The notes: generated by a model from the sequence alone, not told the origin. DNA of 64,000 nt from Bacilli bacterium (GCA_017432825.1 JAFRIJ010000011.1:34591-98590), one strand, 5' to 3'. Positions 11,251 to 40,290 are shown, counted from the first letter of the stretch. Made by a program: numbers and translations.

Positions 11251-11901
11251 CTATCTTTCTATTTCACTAAGTTTTTTATCTAAATCATTTATTATATTTT
11301 GTAATCTATCATAATTATTTTTTAATGATTCTTTTTCTTTAGCTATTTTTTCTTCTTCTTCTTTTTTATAGTCCATAAATTTTTGCTTTTCATCTTTTAA
11401 ATCTAAAGTATCTTTTTCTAATTTGTTTGTAGATTCATTAATGTCTTCTCTCATTTCCTTTAATTCATCAATATATGAATTTAGTTCATTAACTCTAACT
11501 GATAATGCATTAAATAATTCATCAAAATTAGCTCCATAATCACCTTTAGCTTTTATTTCTGGAATATCATTTTCTTTATCTTTTTCATTTTTAATTAATC
11601 GATATTCCGTCCAAAATTGTTTTAATGATGATACTTTTGGCTTAATAACAATTCCTTTTTCTACATAATTATTAAAATATAGTATATTATCTATTTCATT
11701 ATTTACAGGAGTTAAATCATCTATTTTGTTATACATATTAGTTATTCTATCTCTATAATTATTATCTACTTTTATTTCAGTATCAGTTTTTTCTATTGTA
11801 GGAACAATTTTAGGTTTTTTACTTGCACCTAAATTGGAAAATAAATTTTCAGGAAGTTCTATACTTCTTATTTTATTACTGTTACTATACATCATTTTCA
11901 C
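11251..11901 (-). CDS. Coiled-coil hypothetical protein, 216 aa
   Basis: The C-terminal half is heptad-rich (ELNSYIDELKEMREDINESTNKLEKDTLDLKDEKQK...). It overlaps the upstream DUF1292 gene by 17 nt. Confidence 0.5.
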   Translation of the reverse strand: MKMMYSNSNKIRSIELPENLFSNLGASKKPKIVPTIEKTDTEIKVDNNYRDRITNMYNKIDDLTPVNNEIDNILYFNNYVEKGIVIKPKVSSLKQFWTEYRLIKNEKDKENDIPEIKAKGDYGANFDELFNALSVRVNELNSYIDELKEMREDINESTNKLEKDTLDLKDEKQKFMDYKKEEEEKIAKEKESLKNNYDRLQNIINDLDKKLSEIER

Positions 11902-12169
11902 CTTCTAAACTATATTTTGCCATTGTCTTCATTATTTCTTTTAGTTTTTCCCATTCTTCACCATCATTTACGTTTTCTATGAATTGTTTATTTCCCATAT
12001 TTATAACTTTTCCTGAATAAATGATAGTGTTTCCATCTTTGTCTTTTTCATTTTTGGTATAAATGATATATTTTTCGTTATGTCCAGTTATTTTAAAAGC
12101 GCAGATAAGTTCTACTTCACCTACTTCTCTGTAGCCATCTATAAGCGTTATTGTCTTATCATTCCCCAT
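11885..12169 (-). CDS. DUF1292-family small protein
   Basis: A 94-aa acidic protein, ...TLIDGYREVGEVELICAFKITGHNEKYIIYTK..., matching the DUF1292 pattern common in Firmicutes. Confidence 0.65.
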   Translation of the reverse strand: MGNDKTITLIDGYREVGEVELICAFKITGHNEKYIIYTKNEKDKDGNTIIYSGKVINMGNKQFIENVNDGEEWEKLKEIMKTMAKYSLEGENDV

Positions 12170-12387
12170 ATTTATTCTCCTCCTATCTTAAATTATTATA
12201 ACATATTATTTTTTTTATAACAAGATAATATTTTTAATTATTAGAAATTGTATTTTGAATCTCTAAACGTCATTTTTAGTTATTTATTAGTTAACTTTCT
12301 ATTGTTAGATTTTTACTATTTAATATTTGATTTTTGATTATTGGTTAAATTTTCTTTTATTCTATAATTTTTATAGTAGGTGATAAA

Positions 12388-12984
12388 TTGAAGCAGTATT
12401 TTTTAGTTTCATCTATTAATCTTATTAAAAAGAATAAAAATTATACTGATGACGAGATAGAAATCATAGCGTATGGATTAGAAGGTATTTATCTTACTAT
12501 TACAAAGGCTGTTGTAATATTTGGCCTTGCTTTATTACTTGGTATTTTTAAAGAAGTTATTTATTTACTAATTTCCTATAATATTATTAGATCGCAAGCA
12601 TTTGGTATTCACGCTAGTAAAAGTATTTATTGTTTAATATCATCTTTAACTACTTTTATTGGTGGAGCTTATTTATGTATTTATCTAGTAATACCTTTTT
12701 GGTTAATGATTATTATTTCATTACTATGTATTGTATTTCTATTTTTATATGCTCCTGCAGATACAGAAAAAAGACCTATTGTTAATAAAAAGAAAAGAAT
12801 ACGATTTAAAGTTATTAGTGTTTCTTTGGGAATTATATATACAATTTTAATAATTATTTTTAAAGGTAAATTCTTATCTAATTATTTATTATTTGGTATG
12901 TTTATTAGTGTAATTATGATATTACCTGTTACATATAAGATATTTAAAATGCCATATAACAATTATAAAAATTATGGTGTATAA
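12388..12984 (+). CDS. agrB: AgrB-like membrane peptidase, the AgrD-processing enzyme
   Basis: A 198-aa polytopic membrane protein with the AgrB catalytic His/Cys context ...SQAFGIHASKSIYCLISS.... It has a TTG start preceded by aggtga and sits immediately upstream of an AgrD-like peptide ORF. Confidence 0.75.
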   Translation: MKQYFLVSSINLIKKNKNYTDDEIEIIAYGLEGIYLTITKAVVIFGLALLLGIFKEVIYLLISYNIIRSQAFGIHASKSIYCLISSLTTFIGGAYLCIYLVIPFWLMIIISLLCIVFLFLYAPADTEKRPIVNKKKRIRFKVISVSLGIIYTILIIIFKGKFLSNYLLFGMFISVIMILPVTYKIFKMPYNNYKNYGV

Positions 12985-13036
12985 TTAATTATTTTTAATT
13001 AATTTTACATAAATGTATTAAAAAGGAGGTTGTAAT

Positions 13037-13160
13037 AATGAAATTTTTAGCTGACATTTTAGCTCTTCTTGGAGGTTCTTCTGCTAAGGCTGGAACTCAA
13101 GGATGCTACTGGTGGTTTTTAGATGAACCTAAAGCTCCAAAATCTATTATAGAAAGATAA
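13037..13160 (+). CDS. agrD: AgrD-like autoinducing-peptide precursor, absent from the ORF track. As I read it, the N-terminal helix and the C-terminal part sit in frames offset by 1 nt.
   Basis: A strong RBS, aaaaggagg, lies 8 nt before the ATG at about 13037. The N-terminal amphipathic leader reads MKFLADILALLGGSS. A frame offset by one encodes ...AKAGTQGCYWWFLDEPKAPKSIIER, ending at the TAA at 13158-13160. Its DEPKAPK tail matches the conserved AgrD C-terminal motif (compare S. aureus AgrD-II, ...CSSLF DEPKVP...). Confidence 0.45.
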
Positions 13161-13178
13161 AAACTAATTCTTAAAGAA

Positions 13179-14477
13179 TTAGTTTTTTATTATTATTTTT
13201 TGTGTATATAATTTATCAGTAATATTTGTTTCAAGCTCAAAAGTATTACTATTATTAATAATAAATTTTAATAACAATAATCCATGCCCTCTATTCTTTC
13301 CTTTAGAAGATTTTTTGTTTTTATTATATTTATTTAATTCTTCTTTGGAATAAGAATTAGATATAATAATTTGACAATTATCTTTAATTAAATATGCTTC
13401 TATACCTAATAATTTCTCTTTTGATTCCTTTGATGCTTCAATCGCATTATCTAAAATAATACCTAATATTTTACCTAAATTTCTTTGTTCTTTAATATTT
13501 AACTTATAAATATTAGAATTTTTTATTCTTTTAGATATATTGATACTAGTATTTATTTTCTTTTCTTGTGCTTGTTGTGTTTTTAAATAACACAATCCTT
13601 TAATACCATTTGGAGGTAAATATCCAAATTTGGCATATTCTTCTTGTTTAACTTCTATTTTTTCTTTTAATATTTCATCAATATAATCAATTATTTCTTT
13701 ACCCTTTTCTTTATCTTGTATTTTACCCTTTATAGTGATAAATTCATTCTTAGTTTCATGTCTTAATATTCTTTGCTTTTCTATTTCATTTTCATATGTT
13801 GTCATAAATTCTAAAAGCTTATCGTATTCACTTGTTAGTTTATAATTTACTATTGTTTGTCTTACTAATGAAGAAAGTACAAATATTAATACAATAATAG
13901 AAACTAAATAAATTATAATATTATTACTAAATCTAAATTCTTTTATTAGTGTATAAAAGAATAAACCGATACATATTAGTGTTAAAATTGATAAAATAAT
14001 AATTTTTTTATTACTAGATATTTTGGTATTTATAACTTTTCTTAATAATTTTCTTAGTACAAATGTCGTTAAAACAAAACCAATACACATAAAAATGTTT
14101 GATAATAGACTGCCGGCATAGTTATTATATAGAAAATCTCTTTCTATATGTAATACTTCTGTAATTATAAATAATTCTATTATTTCTGGGATTAGTAATA
14201 ATAGTACATAAATGATAGTTAGAAATATTGACTTTGACCAATTTATTTTAAATATATATTTAAATACTAGTACGTGTATTAAACATACTAGTAATGTTTT
14301 GATTGTTCCATATAAGTATAAATTATTTAATGTATACGCGATAGAAGATATTATTAATATAGCAATTAATTCTATTTTTGATATTTTTATTTTTTCTTGT
14401 AATATTATTTTGGCAAAGATTATTTCGCATATACCCATTATAAATATGCCAATCCAAACACTAATAATTTGCAACAT
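13179..14477 (-). CDS. agrC: AgrC-like sensor histidine kinase (HPK10 family), 6-7 TM
   Basis: The N-terminal half is polytopic. An H-box ...RHETKNEF... and a C-terminal HATPase region (GHGLLL) follow. It overlaps the LytTR regulator gene by 17 nt and is convergent with agrB and agrD. Confidence 0.75.
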   Translation of the reverse strand: MLQIISVWIGIFIMGICEIIFAKIILQEKIKISKIELIAILIISSIAYTLNNLYLYGTIKTLLVCLIHVLVFKYIFKINWSKSIFLTIIYVLLLLIPEIIELFIITEVLHIERDFLYNNYAGSLLSNIFMCIGFVLTTFVLRKLLRKVINTKISSNKKIIILSILTLICIGLFFYTLIKEFRFSNNIIIYLVSIIVLIFVLSSLVRQTIVNYKLTSEYDKLLEFMTTYENEIEKQRILRHETKNEFITIKGKIQDKEKGKEIIDYIDEILKEKIEVKQEEYAKFGYLPPNGIKGLCYLKTQQAQEKKINTSINISKRIKNSNIYKLNIKEQRNLGKILGIILDNAIEASKESKEKLLGIEAYLIKDNCQIIISNSYSKEELNKYNKNKKSSKGKNRGHGLLLLKFIINNSNTFELETNITDKLYTQKIIIKN

Positions 14478-15183
14478 ATTCTCTTATTCCTTTTTTATTT
14501 CTGCTTGATAATAAATATACTGTTTTACCATTATTAAATGTTATTGTGCTGTCAGCATAATTAATCTTTTTTATTTGTTCTATATTTACTATACATGATT
14601 TATGTGATTGATAAAAACTAGGGCCTAATATTTTTACTAAGTTTGATATGCTTTGGTTTATCTCATAAGAGCTATCATCTTCCATAACAATTCTGCATTT
14701 TGAATTATCTTGTATCTTTTCAATATACAATATTTTTCTCATTGGTAATCTGTATGAGTTATGATTAAATTCAAATGATAATACTCTTTTCTTATCTAGT
14801 GATCTAATTGTATATATTATGGTTTCTTCGAATCTATCTTGCCATAATTTATCTTTATTAATAAAATCAATTGCAAGTAATCTTGAATAGAATATATCGT
14901 TTTGGCATTCTGGGTGTACTGTTAGGAAGATAATTGAACTATCTAGATCTTCTTCTCTTATTTCTGAAGCTATTTCTAATCCGGATATTTCTGGTAATTC
15001 TATATCTAATATATAGACTTTTTGTTCATTTTCATTTTTTATTATTTTAGATAATTCTTCATTATATTCTGTAAATTTACTTATTTTATATTCAAAATTA
15101 TATGGCATCATTACTTTATTTATGATTACTGATATTTTATCTTGGTATTGTTTTTTATCTTCACATATGATAAATCTTAACAT
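14461..15183 (-). CDS. agrA: AgrA-like response regulator with a LytTR DNA-binding domain
   Basis: Receiver domain (IICEDKK..., phospho-acceptor in ILDIEL) plus a C-terminal LytTR domain (...KCRIVMEDDSSYEINQSISNLVKILG...). Confidence 0.85.
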   Translation of the reverse strand: MLRFIICEDKKQYQDKISVIINKVMMPYNFEYKISKFTEYNEELSKIIKNENEQKVYILDIELPEISGLEIASEIREEDLDSSIIFLTVHPECQNDIFYSRLLAIDFINKDKLWQDRFEETIIYTIRSLDKKRVLSFEFNHNSYRLPMRKILYIEKIQDNSKCRIVMEDDSSYEINQSISNLVKILGPSFYQSHKSCIVNIEQIKKINYADSTITFNNGKTVYLLSSRNKKGIREYVANY

Positions 15184-15247
15184 AAAACCTACTCCTCCTA
15201 AAAATGGTAAGTTATATAATACAACATTTTTTTATTTTTTAAAAGAA

Positions 15248-16435
15248 TTATTGAATTTTTCCTTTTATTAGTTCTATTGATTTATCTAATTGATTGTCTG
15301 TTACTTTAGTGTTATCAAATTCTATATATTCTGTTGGAGATACTCCTATATCTTCTACCCATATTCCTTTTGGTGTTAACCATTTTTGTATTGTATATTT
15401 TATCATGCTTCCATCTTGTAATTTTTTTGTTTTTTGAACTGTTCCTTTACCATATGTATTTGTACCTACTACTATGGCATCATAGCTTTCTTTTAGAGCT
15501 CCTGCTAAAATTTCTGATGCTGATGCACTTGCTCTATTTGTTAATACTGCTATAGGATAGTCTCTTTGTTCTTTGGTTTTATCTTTTATTTTTGTTGTTT
15601 TAGTATCATCTTTTAGTTGATATATTATTTTCCCTTTTTCTAAAAACATGCTTGTAATATTAGTTACGACGTTTAAGTATCCACCACTATTATTTCTTAC
15701 ATCTATGATTAAGGCTTTTATTTTTTTCTTTTCTAATTTTTCTAATTCTTCTTTAAATTGTTTTTCCGTTACAGTACTAAATATTGTTATATTTATATAT
15801 CCTATGTTGTTTTCTTTATCTATTATTTTACTAGATACTGTAGGCATTGTTATTTTAGATGTTGATAGTGTTATTTCTTTTTCTTTATTATCTCTTATAA
15901 TAATCAATTTTACTTTTTTATTATTATTGTTTTTAATATATTCTACTAAATAATTAGTAGTTTTATTATTTAAATCTATATCGTCTACTTTAGTTATTAT
16001 ATCGTTTTCTTTTAATCCTGCTTCTTTTGCTGGTGTATTATCAAATACTTTAACTATTGTTATTCTTTTTTCTGTATCTAGTTTTATTGTTATTCCTAAT
16101 CCTTCATAGTGTCCTTCTACGTTTTCTAAGAATGTTGTAGCTTCTTCTTCATCACTATAGTTTGTGTACTCATCTTCTACACTTTCTATCATAGCGTTTA
16201 CTGCTGTATCTCTTAAATCTTCTTTATCTACTTTTCCATAATAATTTTTTGTTATTGTATCATATGTATCAATTACTTTGTTTAATTCTCCATATAGTCT
16301 GAAATAGTTCTTACCTCCTGCTAGATAGAATAAAATTACTAAACATATTAATGCTCCCATTAATTGATAATATAGAGCATTTAATAATGAATGTTTATCT
16401 ATTTTAATCTTAGAAAAAAAATTTTTTAACTTCAT
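15248..16435 (-). CDS. ctpA: Carboxyl-terminal processing protease (S41 family) with a PDZ domain
   Basis: N-terminal TM. The PDZ stretch is GLGITI...DNTPAKEAGLKENDIITKVDD, and the S41 core is ALIIDVRNNSGGYL. Confidence 0.85.
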   Translation of the reverse strand: MKLKNFFSKIKIDKHSLLNALYYQLMGALICLVILFYLAGGKNYFRLYGELNKVIDTYDTITKNYYGKVDKEDLRDTAVNAMIESVEDEYTNYSDEEEATTFLENVEGHYEGLGITIKLDTEKRITIVKVFDNTPAKEAGLKENDIITKVDDIDLNNKTTNYLVEYIKNNNNKKVKLIIIRDNKEKEITLSTSKITMPTVSSKIIDKENNIGYINITIFSTVTEKQFKEELEKLEKKKIKALIIDVRNNSGGYLNVVTNITSMFLEKGKIIYQLKDDTKTTKIKDKTKEQRDYPIAVLTNRASASASEILAGALKESYDAIVVGTNTYGKGTVQKTKKLQDGSMIKYTIQKWLTPKGIWVEDIGVSPTEYIEFDNTKVTDNQLDKSIELIKGKIQ

Positions 16436-28013: not shown

Positions 28014-30437
28014 TTATATTTTAGTTACTCTTTTTCTTGTTAATGTAATTATTGATGTTAATATTATTACTATAGAGATTATGATTGCTAAAGTTATGTT
28101 ACTTATTATATGGCTGTCACTGTATTGATCTTTTAGAATATTTATTGTGTAATCTTTTGTTGTTTTTGCTTCTGAAGTTACTGTAATAGTTATAATACTA
28201 TTATTTTTTAGTTTTTCATTTCCAGTAATTTTATATGTTGAAGATGAATCGTTTAATGTAACTTTTATATCTAATTTTTTATCATTCTTTATTGGCAAAT
28301 CATATATATATTTATCTTTTTGATAGTTTAATTCATATCCTTTTATTATTATACTTTTGATAGATGTATCATCAGATAATTTCTTTTTATTTGCAATTAC
28401 TACATATTTACATTTGTTTCCATCTTTTCCTGTTACAGTAATTGTTATAATATTTTCCCCTACTTTTAAATTAGATGGTTTATCTATTTCAATTTTAGAA
28501 TCTTTACTTGTAGGTATAGCAGATATATTTAAATCATTAACATCTCCATTTACTGTTACTTCATATTTAAATGTATCTTTATTAAATTTAATATTATAAT
28601 CATTTACTTCTAAATCAGTTAAACTTACATCTTCTTTTTCTGTATTTGTTTTGTTATCATTTTTATTATTATTTTTAGGTTTTTCTTGAGGTAATGGTCT
28701 TGTTACTGAAATGGTATATATTCTTTCTTCTCCTAATTCACTTGTTACTTTTATTTTAAATAAATTTAATCCATATGAAAGATGTTTATTACCTATATCT
28801 CCTTCTAATTTTTGTTGTTCGCTATTTTTAATTGCTTTTATTATTATATTTTCTTTATCTGTTGTTAGTGTATAATCTAATTTTTCTTTATTAAAGTTAG
28901 GTACTATTTTTTCAGTTTCTACAGATAAACTTTTTAAATAATTATCTTCATCCAATCTTCTAGTAATAGTAGCGGTATATGTTGTTTCGCCACATTTATT
29001 ACCTATAATTCTTATATTTGACGTTCCTTCTGATACTTGTGTTATCGTTAAATAATCATTTTCTATTTTACATGTTGCAACATTATTATTACTACTTACG
29101 CAAGATAAATCCCCTGCGTTTTCATTTGTTATTTTTACAACTAATTTTTTTCCATTTAATGGTGTTGTACCGTTTTGGGCTGATAATGATAGTTTATATA
29201 CTTTTGCTGTAAATCCAACTTCGTTATGTCCATTACTTTCTGTAAAAATTATTCTTGCATCTCCTGCTTTGTTTCCTGTTAATATTGAAATGCTTTTTCT
29301 ATATAAAGATGCATTCATTACTATATTTCTATCACTAATACTTTTTGTACTAATACTACCAAAATTAAATCCACTTACTATTATGCTGGCTCCAATACTA
29401 TTATTTTTTTCAATACATCCTTCTTTTGGAAACATTGTAAATGATGTAAATAATACTTCTAAGTTTAATTCTGTTTCTCCATATGTTGGACTTATTACTT
29501 TTACTATTGTTTGACCATCGTCTATTGGTCTTAGTATTAATTTTTTATCTTCGATACTACAACTTGCTATATTTGGATTATCTATAGTACAGGTTAATTC
29601 ATTATAATTTAGGGCACTTATTGGTATTTCACTATCATATGCTCCTCTATATGTTGTTAAGGATTGCTGTGATAATTTAGGCCTGTTATCTACAATTACT
29701 CTAGCTGTTTTAGATAAACTATTATCTTTAGTCGTTGCTGTAATTGTTGTTTCTCCTTGATTAATAGCGATTATTTTACCTGTTTCATCAACTGTTGCTA
29801 CACTGGTATTACTACTTGTCCAATTAAGATTTTGGTTTAGGATTATATTAGGACTAACTGTATAAATGATTCTTTCAGTCTCATTTGTTACAAGAGTTAT
29901 TTCTGTTTTGTTTAATTGTAGAGAGCTATAACTGCTGTTTAAATAATCATTTATTGTATCCAAATCTTCTATTGTAATACTATTATCTTTATTTATATCA
30001 ATCGCTTTTATTTCTATATCTGTTAGAGTTATTTCTTTATCTAAGTGCTTTTGTAATTTGTTTAAGTCTTCTATATTTACTATTCCATCTTTAGTAATAT
30101 CTCCGGTAATTATATTTGTGTATGTTCCTACTAAATTGTTAGCACTATTATATACTAAGGTTTTAGTTCCAGTATAGATATTTCCACTGGTTAATTCTAT
30201 ATCATTTTCATTTATTATTTTTAGGTAGCAATTATTTATGTCAAAATATTTTTTAAATAAATTAATACTAGTATTTGGAGATATATTGGTGATAGTATTA
30301 TTACTAATATTATATATATCTGTTTTAAATTCTATATTTGAAGCAAAAGTAAATTTTTTAATAGTAGATAGTAGTACTATTAAAAAAGTTAATATAAATA
30401 CTAATGAAACTAATATATTTGTTCTTTTCTTTTTCAT
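28014..30437 (-). CDS. Large surface protein carrying an N-proximal type-I dockerin module, Big_2 Ig-like domains, three cadherin-like beta-sandwich repeats and a C-terminal TM anchor
   Basis: Dockerin F-hand pair GDITKDGIVNIEDLNKLQKHL ... DINKDNSITIEDLDTINDYL. Cadherin-like repeats begin DNYLKSLSVETEKIVPNF, VSLTDLEVNDYNIKFNKD and DTSIKSIIIKGYELNYQKD. The C-terminal hydrophobic helix is followed by RKRVTKI. Confidence 0.6.
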   Translation of the reverse strand: MKKKRTNILVSLVFILTFLIVLLSTIKKFTFASNIEFKTDIYNISNNTITNISPNTSINLFKKYFDINNCYLKIINENDIELTSGNIYTGTKTLVYNSANNLVGTYTNIITGDITKDGIVNIEDLNKLQKHLDKEITLTDIEIKAIDINKDNSITIEDLDTINDYLNSSYSSLQLNKTEITLVTNETERIIYTVSPNIILNQNLNWTSSNTSVATVDETGKIIAINQGETTITATTKDNSLSKTARVIVDNRPKLSQQSLTTYRGAYDSEIPISALNYNELTCTIDNPNIASCSIEDKKLILRPIDDGQTIVKVISPTYGETELNLEVLFTSFTMFPKEGCIEKNNSIGASIIVSGFNFGSISTKSISDRNIVMNASLYRKSISILTGNKAGDARIIFTESNGHNEVGFTAKVYKLSLSAQNGTTPLNGKKLVVKITNENAGDLSCVSSNNNVATCKIENDYLTITQVSEGTSNIRIIGNKCGETTYTATITRRLDEDNYLKSLSVETEKIVPNFNKEKLDYTLTTDKENIIIKAIKNSEQQKLEGDIGNKHLSYGLNLFKIKVTSELGEERIYTISVTRPLPQEKPKNNNKNDNKTNTEKEDVSLTDLEVNDYNIKFNKDTFKYEVTVNGDVNDLNISAIPTSKDSKIEIDKPSNLKVGENIITITVTGKDGNKCKYVVIANKKKLSDDTSIKSIIIKGYELNYQKDKYIYDLPIKNDKKLDIKVTLNDSSSTYKITGNEKLKNNSIITITVTSEAKTTKDYTINILKDQYSDSHIISNITLAIIISIVIILTSIITLTRKRVTKI

Positions 30438-34657: not shown

Positions 34658-34741
34658 TGGTGCGAGTGAAGGGACTTGAACCCCCACGGATAAACCACTA
34701 GATCCTAAGTCTAGCGCGTCTGCCAATTTCGCCACACTCGC
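34658..34741 (-). tRNA. tRNA-Leu, anticodon UAG, class II with a long variable arm
   Basis: The reverse complement folds into a cloverleaf: acceptor GCGAGTG/CACTCGC, anticodon stem CTAGA/TCTAG with loop CTTAGGA, T-loop TTCAAGT, and a CCA end. Confidence 0.9.
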
Positions 34742-34748
34742 ATATATT

Positions 34749-34825
34749 TGGTGGACCCTATAGGACTCGAACCTATGACCGCCCGGTTATGAGCCGGATG
34801 CTCTAACCAACTGAGCTAAGGGTCC
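34749..34825 (-). tRNA. tRNA-Met, anticodon CAU; elongator type (G1-C72 paired). A tRNA-Ile(LAU) reading is not excluded.
   Basis: The reverse complement is GGACCCTTAGCTCAGTTGGTTAGAGCATCCGGCTCATAACCGGGCGGTCATAGGTTCGAGTCCTATAGGGTCCACCA, which folds into a canonical cloverleaf. Confidence 0.85.
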
Positions 34826-39273: not shown

Positions 39274-40290
39274 ATGTCTAAATATATAGATTTAAGAGAT
39301 AATTGTAATAAAGAATTATTAGTTGCTGCTAGCAACTGTATAAAAGAAGGAAAATTAGTAATATTTCCTACAGAAACTGTTTATGGTATTGGAGCTGATG
39401 GGCTTAATGCGAATGCTGTTAAGAATATTTTTATTGCTAAGGGAAGAGCTAGTGATAATCCTTTAATACTACATGTTTCTAGTATTGATATGATTAATAG
39501 AATTGCTTATATTGAATCTAAGCTAGAAAAAGACCTTATTAATGCTTTCTTTCCTGGACCATTAACTATAATTTTAAAGAAGAAAGAAATTGTTCCTAAT
39601 ATAGTTTGTGGTAATTTAGATACTGTTGGAGTTAGAATGCCTATTAATAATATTGCTCATGATTTAATAGAATTATCTAATACTCCTATAGCTGCTCCTA
39701 GTGCTAATATATCTGGTAGACCTAGTGGTACTAATATTAAAGATATATATGATGAACTTAATAATAGGGTCGACTATATTATAGATGGTGGAGATACTAA
39801 TATTGGGTTGGAATCTACAGTTATTAGAGTTATTAATGATGAAATACATATTTTAAGGCCTGGTAAAATTACTTATGACGATTTGAGTAAGTATGGTAAG
39901 GTAGTAATTGATTCACATGTTTTAGATAAGGTTAAAGCAACTGATAAGGTATTATCTCCTGGTATGAAATACAGACATTATGCTCCTAAAACTAAATGTG
40001 TGCTAGTATATAGTGAAAATAATAAAAAATTAATTGAAAAGATGAAAGAATTAGAAAGTGAGAATACCTTAGTAATTACTCATAATAAGAATATTAATCT
40101 CTTTAAAAATGCTATTAGTTATGGTGAAACGTTAGAAGATATTTCTCATAATATTTTTAAAATACTAAGAAGTGTTGATAAATATAATAATGATTTAGTT
40201 ATAATTGAGGGTGTTAAGTCTAAAGGTTTAGGTCTAGCTATTATGAATAGGCTTATTAGAGCTTGTTCTCATAATTATATTAAAATATAA
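39274..40290 (+). CDS. tsaC: L-threonylcarbamoyladenylate synthase (Sua5/YwlC type, with the Sua5 C-terminal domain)
   Basis: YrdC fold motif IFPTETVYGIGAD...; the 338-aa length indicates the extra Sua5 domain. Confidence 0.85.
   Translation: MSKYIDLRDNCNKELLVAASNCIKEGKLVIFPTETVYGIGADGLNANAVKNIFIAKGRASDNPLILHVSSIDMINRIAYIESKLEKDLINAFFPGPLTIILKKKEIVPNIVCGNLDTVGVRMPINNIAHDLIELSNTPIAAPSANISGRPSGTNIKDIYDELNNRVDYIIDGGDTNIGLESTVIRVINDEIHILRPGKITYDDLSKYGKVVIDSHVLDKVKATDKVLSPGMKYRHYAPKTKCVLVYSENNKKLIEKMKELESENTLVITHNKNINLFKNAISYGETLEDISHNIFKILRSVDKYNNDLVIIEGVKSKGLGLAIMNRLIRACSHNYIKI

Follow-up and report, generated by a model that had tools for sequence, protein, structure and literature searches.

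A stretch of 64,000 nucleotides (nt) from a Bacilli bacterium (GCA_017432825.1, JAFRIJ010000011.1:34591-98590), hereafter the window, very probably carries, as judged from its sequence, a functional chromosomal autoinducing-peptide system of the agr type in an uncultured, probably spore-forming gut or rumen member of the 'Bacilli' with ~24% GC. An original prediction, made by reading the bases by eye, had described a complete agr-type locus whose peptide gene, agrD, was unannotated and apparently frameshifted. The first part was upheld, as AgrB, AgrD, an AgrC-like kinase and a regulator with receiver (REC) and LytTR domains were all identified; the second was not, and agrD proved to be intact. 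Gene identities were established by profile searches and the agrD frame by direct translation. The coding features are as follows, with lengths in amino acids (aa).

12388..12984, + strand: agrB, 198-aa membrane cysteine peptidase for AgrD processing; TTG start, ribosome-binding site (RBS) AGGTGA at 12378-12383
13021..13029, + strand: agrD RBS AAAAGGAGG, 8 nt ahead of the ATG, as seen in the sequence itself
13038..13160, + strand: agrD, intact 40-aa autoinducing-peptide precursor MKFLADILALLGGSSAKAGTQGCYWWFLDEPKAPKSIIER in a single open frame
13179..14477, - strand: agrC-like sensor histidine kinase, 432 aa, ~7 transmembrane (TM) segments within residues 1-205, kinase module containing His240
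14461..15183, - strand: agrA-like response regulator (REC + LytTR), 240 aa, with a 17-nt overlap with the agrC start

The agrD reading frame and the four proteins

We re-read the region 12100-13300 and listed all open reading frames (ORFs) of at least 20 aa. The strong RBS and the ATG predicted ahead of the peptide gene were both found, the gene starting 53 nt downstream of agrB on the same strand. From the ATG at 13038, 40 codons run uninterrupted to the TAA at 13158-13160, and the peptide read by eye, MKFLADILALLGGSS...AKAGTQGCYWWFLDEPKAPKSIIER, was confirmed by the ORF listing and by translation, its leader and tail lying in one frame and not in two as had been proposed. The extra C held responsible for the frameshift, in a 'CC' near 13080, is not in the sequence, bases 13078-13081 being c-t-t-c, and the TAA assigned to the leader frame is actually out of frame, at 13085-13087 across codons 16 (GCT) and 17 (AAG). 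Of the three forward frames translated, only frame 1 is open throughout, the other two being full of stops, and a frameshifted agrD was rejected.

The supposed frameshift had been given three possible explanations: a sequencing indel, a disrupted agrD in a peptide-null, cheater-like strain keeping its receptor, or a misreading. It was the last. An identical 40-aa product is encoded by 21 contigs, which stem from independent samples and assemblers, and is present in GenBank as MBQ6495135.1 ('MAG: cyclic lactone autoinducer peptide [Bacilli bacterium]', a PGAP name that agrees with AgrD); the gene is therefore neither the result of a sequencing indel nor unannotated. The peptide-null state is refuted by direct translation, and homologues in ~20 species share the 40-aa length. 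Nothing beyond the reading by eye speaks for a disrupted gene or an assembly indel, to which we give practically no credence. The absence of agrD from the original ORF track is probably due to its 40 aa falling below the default 60-aa threshold of that list. Its neighbours are entered in GenBank as MBQ6495134 (AgrB family), MBQ6495136 (GHKL kinase) and MBQ6495137 (response regulator). With the frameshift claim gone, what stands is a genuine, intact and already annotated agr system.

The agrB-like ORF was borne out. Its product matches Pfam AgrB (PF04647) with E=9.7e-36 and 123 bits against a cut-off of 23, with 177 of 185 profile positions covered, and NCBIfam NF002210 with E=1e-40; it is identical to GenBank MBQ6495134.1, and a search against PDB sequences gave no meaningful match. 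Its His75 and Cys82, spaced by 7 residues, do not vary among 19 clade AgrBs. The catalytic dyad of S. aureus AgrB is His77/Cys84 (PMC10482373), with identical spacing. From this spacing and invariance, His75/Cys82 would be the equivalent dyad.

AgrD shows the expected architecture, with an amphipathic leader, a single Cys, a variable core and a conserved acidic, Pro-containing tail. The profile check that had been suggested for it gave a divided answer: NCBIfam TIGR04223 was passed by a small margin (21.4 bits against a cut-off of 19, E=2e-4), whereas no Pfam model matched the 40-aa peptide at E<=1, including AgrD (PF05931), which is built mainly on staphylococcal-type sequences. A precomputed PF05931 match exists for just 2 of the 120 family members listed in the search described below. 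On these profile scores, the AgrD of the locus is a member of a distant AgrD subfamily.

The kinase matches Pfam PF14501 (HATPase_c_5) with E=6e-11. Its best NCBIfam match is staphylococcal AgrC (E=1e-26, 94 bits against an equivalog cut-off of 500), its best solved relatives are the S. aureus AgrC structures 4bxi and 6e52, and its hydropathy map displays ~7 hydrophobic segments. The phospho-acceptor His240, within RHETKNEF, is invariant in 33 homologues; among these, invariant residues are concentrated at 201-426, with just 3 in residues 1-200. The regulator matches PF00072 (E=3.6e-11) and LytTR PF04397 (E=3.8e-16); AgrA is its best NCBIfam match (E=2.4e-19, 70 bits against an equivalog cut-off of 400) and ComE (4cbv) its best solved relative. 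The 17-nt overlap between agrA and agrC suggests translational coupling. As judged by these scores, AgrC and AgrA are agr-type proteins and not close orthologues of the staphylococcal ones.

The predicted peptide signal

13104..13121, + strand: predicted mature-signal core Cys23-Leu28 (CYWWFL), with putative ring size and tail length
13113-13115, + strand: polymorphic codon 26, TGG (W) or TTA (L)

A database search with a profile built from 19 clade AgrDs gave 687 proteins, and the analysis was carried out on 121 peptides, namely the 120 matches listed out of these 687 and the CYWLF variant. Nearly all of the 120 are exactly 40 aa long, and they follow the pattern MKF(I/L)AD.LA..G ... GTQGC-x5-DEPKxPKS(L/I)IE(K/R). 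The spacing from Cys to DEP is exactly 5 residues in 120 of the 121, the remaining peptide having DEV. No variation was seen at Cys23, Asp29, Glu30 or Pro34 among 119 peptides, and the 121 yielded 107 distinct versions of the hypervariable core. Column entropy is ~0 at G19, T20, Q21, C23, D29, E30, P31 and P34, and peaks at positions 24, 25 and 28 (3.2, 2.6 and 2.6 bits, respectively), while C+3 is limited to W, L or F and C+4 is mostly F or I. The Trp-rich core proposed for this locus was upheld.

The original prediction had left the ring at five or six residues. We favour, with some reserve, the six-residue thiolactone CYWWFL, because position 28 varies like a specificity residue (8 states, as variable as positions 24 and 25) and the near-invariant tail begins at D29. 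Cleavage of S. aureus AgrD-II, where AgrB cuts directly before the homologous motif DEPKVP, which DEPKAPK resembles here, is a further reason for this choice. These same points argue against a five-residue ring CYWWF, in which Leu28 would be the first residue of a removed tail LDEPKAPKSIIER. Such a ring is a possibility of some substance, if not the one we expect: C+3 (W/L/F) and C+4 (F/I) are the most constrained core positions, which fits C+4 as the ring-closing hydrophobic residue. Five-membered rings are also described as 'far more common', while six-membered rings have already been predicted for the C. acetobutylicum group (PMC10301443), which counts against the smaller ring. Either the mature tail or a recognition site may include the conserved GTQG.

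The locus leaves our understanding of agr systems unchanged. Its remaining value is a testable pheromone prediction, that of a thiolactone, CYWWFL or CYWWF, extended by a short N-terminal tail, in a lineage without a cultured representative among the relatives found.

Candidate regulatory elements, gene order and proposed circuit

12264..12294, + strand: conserved 31-bp box TAAACGTCATTTTTAGTTATTTATTAGTTAA with three A(C/G)GT-type half-sites; candidate LytTR (AgrA) operator for agrBD
12363..12368, + strand: -10 hexamer TATAAT of a putative agrBD promoter; TATAAT or a one-off variant lies at the same start-codon distance in nearly all species
15184..15247, - strand: 64-bp spacer between a ctpB-like gene and agrA, with RBS AGGAGGAG and a weak promoter-like site at 15243-15216
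13156..13191, both strands: AT-rich hairpin with A-run and T-run flanks, candidate bidirectional intrinsic terminator overlapping the agrD and agrC 3' ends

Alignment of the 240 nt upstream of agrB from 21 loci revealed a 31-bp box with the consensus TAAACG-N9-GTTA-N7-GTTAA; 15 of the 21 (12 after removal of near-duplicates) have it at -123 to -127 relative to the agrB start. Its half-sites ACGT, AGTT and AGTT follow each other in 11-bp steps, the outer pair being 22 bp apart. The box has a single match in the window, even with 2 mismatches allowed. However, at least one match at 2 mismatches also occurred in 34 of 100 shuffled sequences, and its cross-species position is therefore the main evidence for it: it is found once per related locus, always upstream of agrB, and is retained in two loci (L019 and L022) despite differing sequence further upstream.

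The half-sites resemble LytTR direct repeats, such as the two 9-bp sites separated by 12 bp in S. aureus agrP2 (PMC10482373), and the box is a candidate binding site for AgrA. A direct-repeat period of ~21-22 bp is shared with the operators of ComDE (S. pneumoniae) and PlnABCD (L. plantarum). These systems also use LytTR regulators, ComE being the best solved relative of AgrA as mentioned above, but their peptides are linear, ABC-exported double-glycine peptides, without AgrB or a thiolactone. Alternatively, another regulator could bind the box, or it could belong to the divergent promoter of a DUF1292 gene. Its centre, ~90 bp upstream of the likely agrB transcription start, is indeed atypically placed, and it lies 41 bp from the -35 hexamer of that well-conserved promoter (12223-12195). 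Nevertheless, the maintained distance to agrB in L019 and L022, the A(C/G)GTTA half-sites with their 11/22-bp spacing and the lack of a second occurrence in the window make this alternative rather unlikely, and we retain the box as a candidate AgrA operator. The DUF1292 gene itself (11885-12169, - strand), divergent from agrB, has an extended -10 promoter TTGTTA-17-TGTTATAAT (12195-12223) and an RBS, both conserved in most relatives.

The conserved -10 hexamer of agrBD lies ~68 bp downstream of the box end. A scan for sigma-70 consensus promoters returned 31 sites against 34.9 expected and was uninformative in this AT-rich (22% GC) DNA. No copy of the agrB-type box was found upstream of agrA. 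The agrA-agrC unit would be expressed from its own weak putative promoter or by read-through from ctpB, and the distribution of the box suggests that phosphorylated AgrA activates agrBD only, so that the signal genes alone would be autoinduced. The gene at 15248-16435 (- strand) encodes a CtpB-like S41/PDZ protease; in the window, as in all closer relatives with listed genes, it precedes agrA on the same strand at a distance of 64 bp, and could be co-transcribed with agrAC. A role of this protease in AgrD leader processing or in sporulation signalling would be pure speculation.

The two units agrB-agrD (+) and agrA-agrC (-) converge, and only 18 nt, inside the hairpin, separate the agrD stop from the end of agrC. 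On the + strand the hairpin has a predicted folding energy of -11.1 kcal/mol (z = -3.6), on the - strand one of -11.2 kcal/mol (z = -4.0), and a function as bidirectional terminator is plausible. A consensus terminator scan found nothing and missed this hairpin because it demands at least 3 G-C pairs. No RNAIII or other structured RNA passed the Rfam gathering threshold in the window apart from two tRNAs elsewhere, and a permissive Rfam scan gave one chance-level match, on the hairpin (17.9 bits against 100).

The convergent, regulator-first arrangement (agrA 14461-15183, then agrC 13179-14477) is as had been predicted, although less unusual than was implied then, since split units and regulator-first order are known in clostridia. 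About 20 GTDB species representatives, as well as several metagenome contigs, keep these four genes in the same convergent order and, in most cases, their neighbours too; the layout is thus a stable feature of the clade and not a rearrangement of this strain. Split agrBD and agrCA units occur in C. acetobutylicum (PMC10301443) and a regulator-first order, agrACDB, in C. difficile (PMC3754575). We found no description of the convergent agrBD/agrAC orientation in the agr literature compared, and the layout is a variation on known themes.

Compared with S. aureus agrBDCA, the locus has the same four components, an AgrD with the same succession of amphipathic leader, single Cys and acidic Pro-containing tail, an AgrC whose best PDB match is the kinase module of S. 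aureus AgrC and a regulator that is likewise of the LytTR type. In contrast to the single staphylococcal operon, two convergent units are found here, with the regulator before the kinase; the divergent P3/RNAIII has no counterpart by Rfam, and the candidate operator lies upstream of agrBD only. The spacing from Cys to DE is 5 residues instead of 4, and the tail 12 aa instead of 14. Given the convergent units, the lack of RNAIII and the sub-equivalog AgrC and AgrA scores, strict staphylococcal-type agr orthology does not hold.

AgrD of C. difficile carries HQPKVPKE and not DEPK after its core. The C. difficile agr2 locus shares the chromosomal order A-C-D-B, with agrA and agrC proposed as one unit, but a single agrACDB transcript was suggested there (PMC3754575), whereas agrD and agrB are on the opposite strand here and therefore cannot belong to the agrAC transcript. 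C. acetobutylicum also has separate agrBD and agrCA transcription units, no RNAIII and a predicted six-residue ring; it is likewise an anaerobic spore-former, and its agr system affects sporulation-related traits (PMC10301443). However, the units have the same orientation there, agrCA is kinase-first and a LanM-like gene, CA_C0082, is associated (PMC10301443), in contrast to the convergent units, the agrA-agrC order, the absence of a LanM-like neighbour and the different host lineage in our case.

Taken together, these features suggest the following circuit. agrB and agrD would be co-transcribed from the + strand, and AgrB, through His75/Cys82, would remove the conserved C-terminal tail DEPKAPKSIIER from the 40-aa AgrD and close a thiolactone between Cys23 and the new C-terminus, most likely giving CYWWFL, or alternatively CYWWF. 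A second protease would remove the amphipathic leader somewhere in ...AKA-GTQG. The resulting hydrophobic, Trp-rich peptide would be sensed by the 7-TM AgrC-like kinase, which would phosphorylate AgrA via His240. Phosphorylated AgrA would probably bind the triple-repeat box upstream of agrB, giving positive feedback on signal production only. The receptor and the regulator would be expressed separately, from the regulator-first agrA-agrC unit on the opposite strand, which converges on agrBD and would share the bidirectional hairpin terminator with it.

Several points weigh against a functional agr system of this kind. The organism is uncultured and the system is known here from sequence alone. 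AgrD exceeds the TIGR04223 cut-off by only 2.4 bits, with no Pfam AgrD match, and AgrC (94/500 bits) and AgrA (70/400 bits) score far below the staphylococcal equivalog cut-offs. The AgrA sites of S. aureus P2/P3 abut the -35 and are thus nearer to the promoter than the box is here; the distance of ~68 bp from the box to the -10 is atypical, and control by AgrA is the least secure step of the circuit, although plausible. With respect to the predicted regulon, no AgrA-box target besides agrB was found in the 64 kb. Variant features of the system are the convergence of its units, the placing of the regulator first, the C-x5 cores and a candidate operator that lies distally and serves agrBD only.

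Allelic variation and genomic surroundings

The locus is polymorphic between strains. In the window species, 5 contigs from as many samples have an AgrD with W26L (CYWLFL), codon 26 being changed at two adjacent bases (TGG to TTA). They share a GTG start and, in AgrB, V7D and V42I; F169V and I173V occur in 4 of the 5 each, and all of these contigs break inside agrC. One CYWLFL contig (L001) and a contig from a different sample (L050) share an agrC patch with 34 nt differences within 113 nt, amounting to 13 amino-acid changes at AgrC residues 139-175, with >99% identity everywhere else. In the receptor, these residues fall in TM5, a basic cytoplasmic loop and TM6. A full-length alternative AgrC allele of the window species is not in the database as one protein and was reconstructed only from the overlapping fragments L050 and L001. 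Two candidates for it, P0023 and P0024, were rejected as belonging to a sister species.

The locus genes of this sister species are ~78-86% nucleotide-identical to those of the window. Within it, three loci (L016, L017 and L038) are 97-99% identical in their flanks and only 62-72% over the first 600 nt of agrC, and their AgrD cores are CYWWFI, CYWFFI and CLFWFM, respectively. Moreover, the AgrD of L016 is joined to the AgrB and sensor of L038 on two further contigs, L039 and L040, from independent samples and assemblers. The identical mosaic on both indicates real recombination, and the pairing of peptide and sensor is therefore not strict; strict AgrD-AgrC allele pairing was rejected for the sister species. 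Hypervariable agrB, agrD and agrC sensor regions define the staphylococcal agr groups within a species (PMC10482373), and the variation seen here, which appears confined to the same regions, resembles such specificity groups.

It is nonetheless conceivable, and deserves some weight, that the strain 'alleles' (CYWWFL/CYWLFL with the AgrC patch, and the sister mosaics) are chimeric assemblies or neutral recombination scars and not functional groups. All data come from short metagenome contigs, many breaking inside agrC; the AgrC patch lies in TM5, the cytoplasmic loop and TM6 and not in a predicted extracellular loop; and the sister species has one sensor with two cores and one core with two sensors. 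On the other hand, W26L needs two adjacent substitutions and yet recurs in five samples, the patch and the mosaic were each recovered from different samples, the mosaic also by different assemblers, and divergence is limited to exactly the regions that are hypervariable in staphylococci (PMC10482373).

Two contigs carry unusual receptor genes. On L047:1390-2427 (sample ERZ28655635), agrC codon 65 is changed from TGT to TGA (window equivalent ~14283-14285); this is nonsense under code 11, although the public gene call reads through, and may represent a receptor-null variant or an assembly error. In L007:614-1903 / L042 (one contig, sample ERZ28654026), AgrC lacks R236-I237-L238, directly before His240 (window equivalent 13764-13772). 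R236 is invariant in the 33 homologues, and the deletion may be a natural signalling-defective receptor variant.

We tentatively propose, as a joint reading that is open to considerable doubt, that the locus belongs to a large, so far undescribed AgrD subfamily of uncultured low-GC, spore-forming gut and rumen Bacilli. Its members would make aromatic-rich thiolactones with six-residue rings (C-x5, with C+3 fixed as W, L or F), would autoinduce the signal-synthesis genes alone via a distal triple-repeat LytTR operator, and would diversify within species by short recombination patches that can uncouple agrD and agrC alleles. If true, this would imply a dense network of cross-talk or interference among co-resident gut strains. 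The ~100 natural core variants, together with the natural receptor alleles, would lend themselves to tests of AgrC ligand specificity and ring-size tolerance, and also of whether agr interference shapes strain coexistence in rumen and gut communities.

The chromosomal surroundings have ~24% GC, with nearly all genes on the - strand. A mobile-element or plasmid origin was rejected, as a megablast search against plasmids was empty and synteny with ctpB, DUF1292 and xfp is kept across species. Among the genes around the locus are those for a phosphoketolase, a PGA_cap protein, the DUF1292 protein and, directly upstream of agrA, the CtpB-like protease, together with genes for SSB, an amidase, SufB/D, a Mur ligase, GyrA, a dockerin-domain protein and YqfD, which belongs to sporulation. 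This set indicates a walled anaerobe that probably forms spores. The window contains no 16S rRNA gene. Sample names such as XIEF21-1 and SAMN158299xx may point to a metagenome study of the ruminant gut. Every relative found is an uncultured gut metagenome-assembled genome (MAG) under the label 'Bacilli bacterium' or 'Erysipelotrichaceae bacterium'; for a few records the title is 'Muribaculaceae', perhaps by mislabelling.

The 54 curated long ORFs of the window end in TAA (45) or TAG (9) and never in TGA, which may thus be avoided, and Trp is always encoded by TGG (86 times). TGA ends 12 of 126 long stop-to-stop frames in related-species loci. Genetic code 4 was rejected because TGG is the only Trp codon used and code 11 gives full-length ORFs. 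Over the whole window (1-64000) the GC skew is uniformly negative, and agrBD and 39274-40290 are the only curated long-ORF units on the + strand. The sole Rfam gathering-level matches are an adjacent pair of tRNA genes at 34661-34741 and 34752-34825 (- strand). The dockerin-domain protein (28014-30437, - strand) is 807 aa long and combines a type I dockerin with Big_2 and a cadherin-like domain, a cellulosome-type module that is unexpected for a MAG labelled Bacilli.

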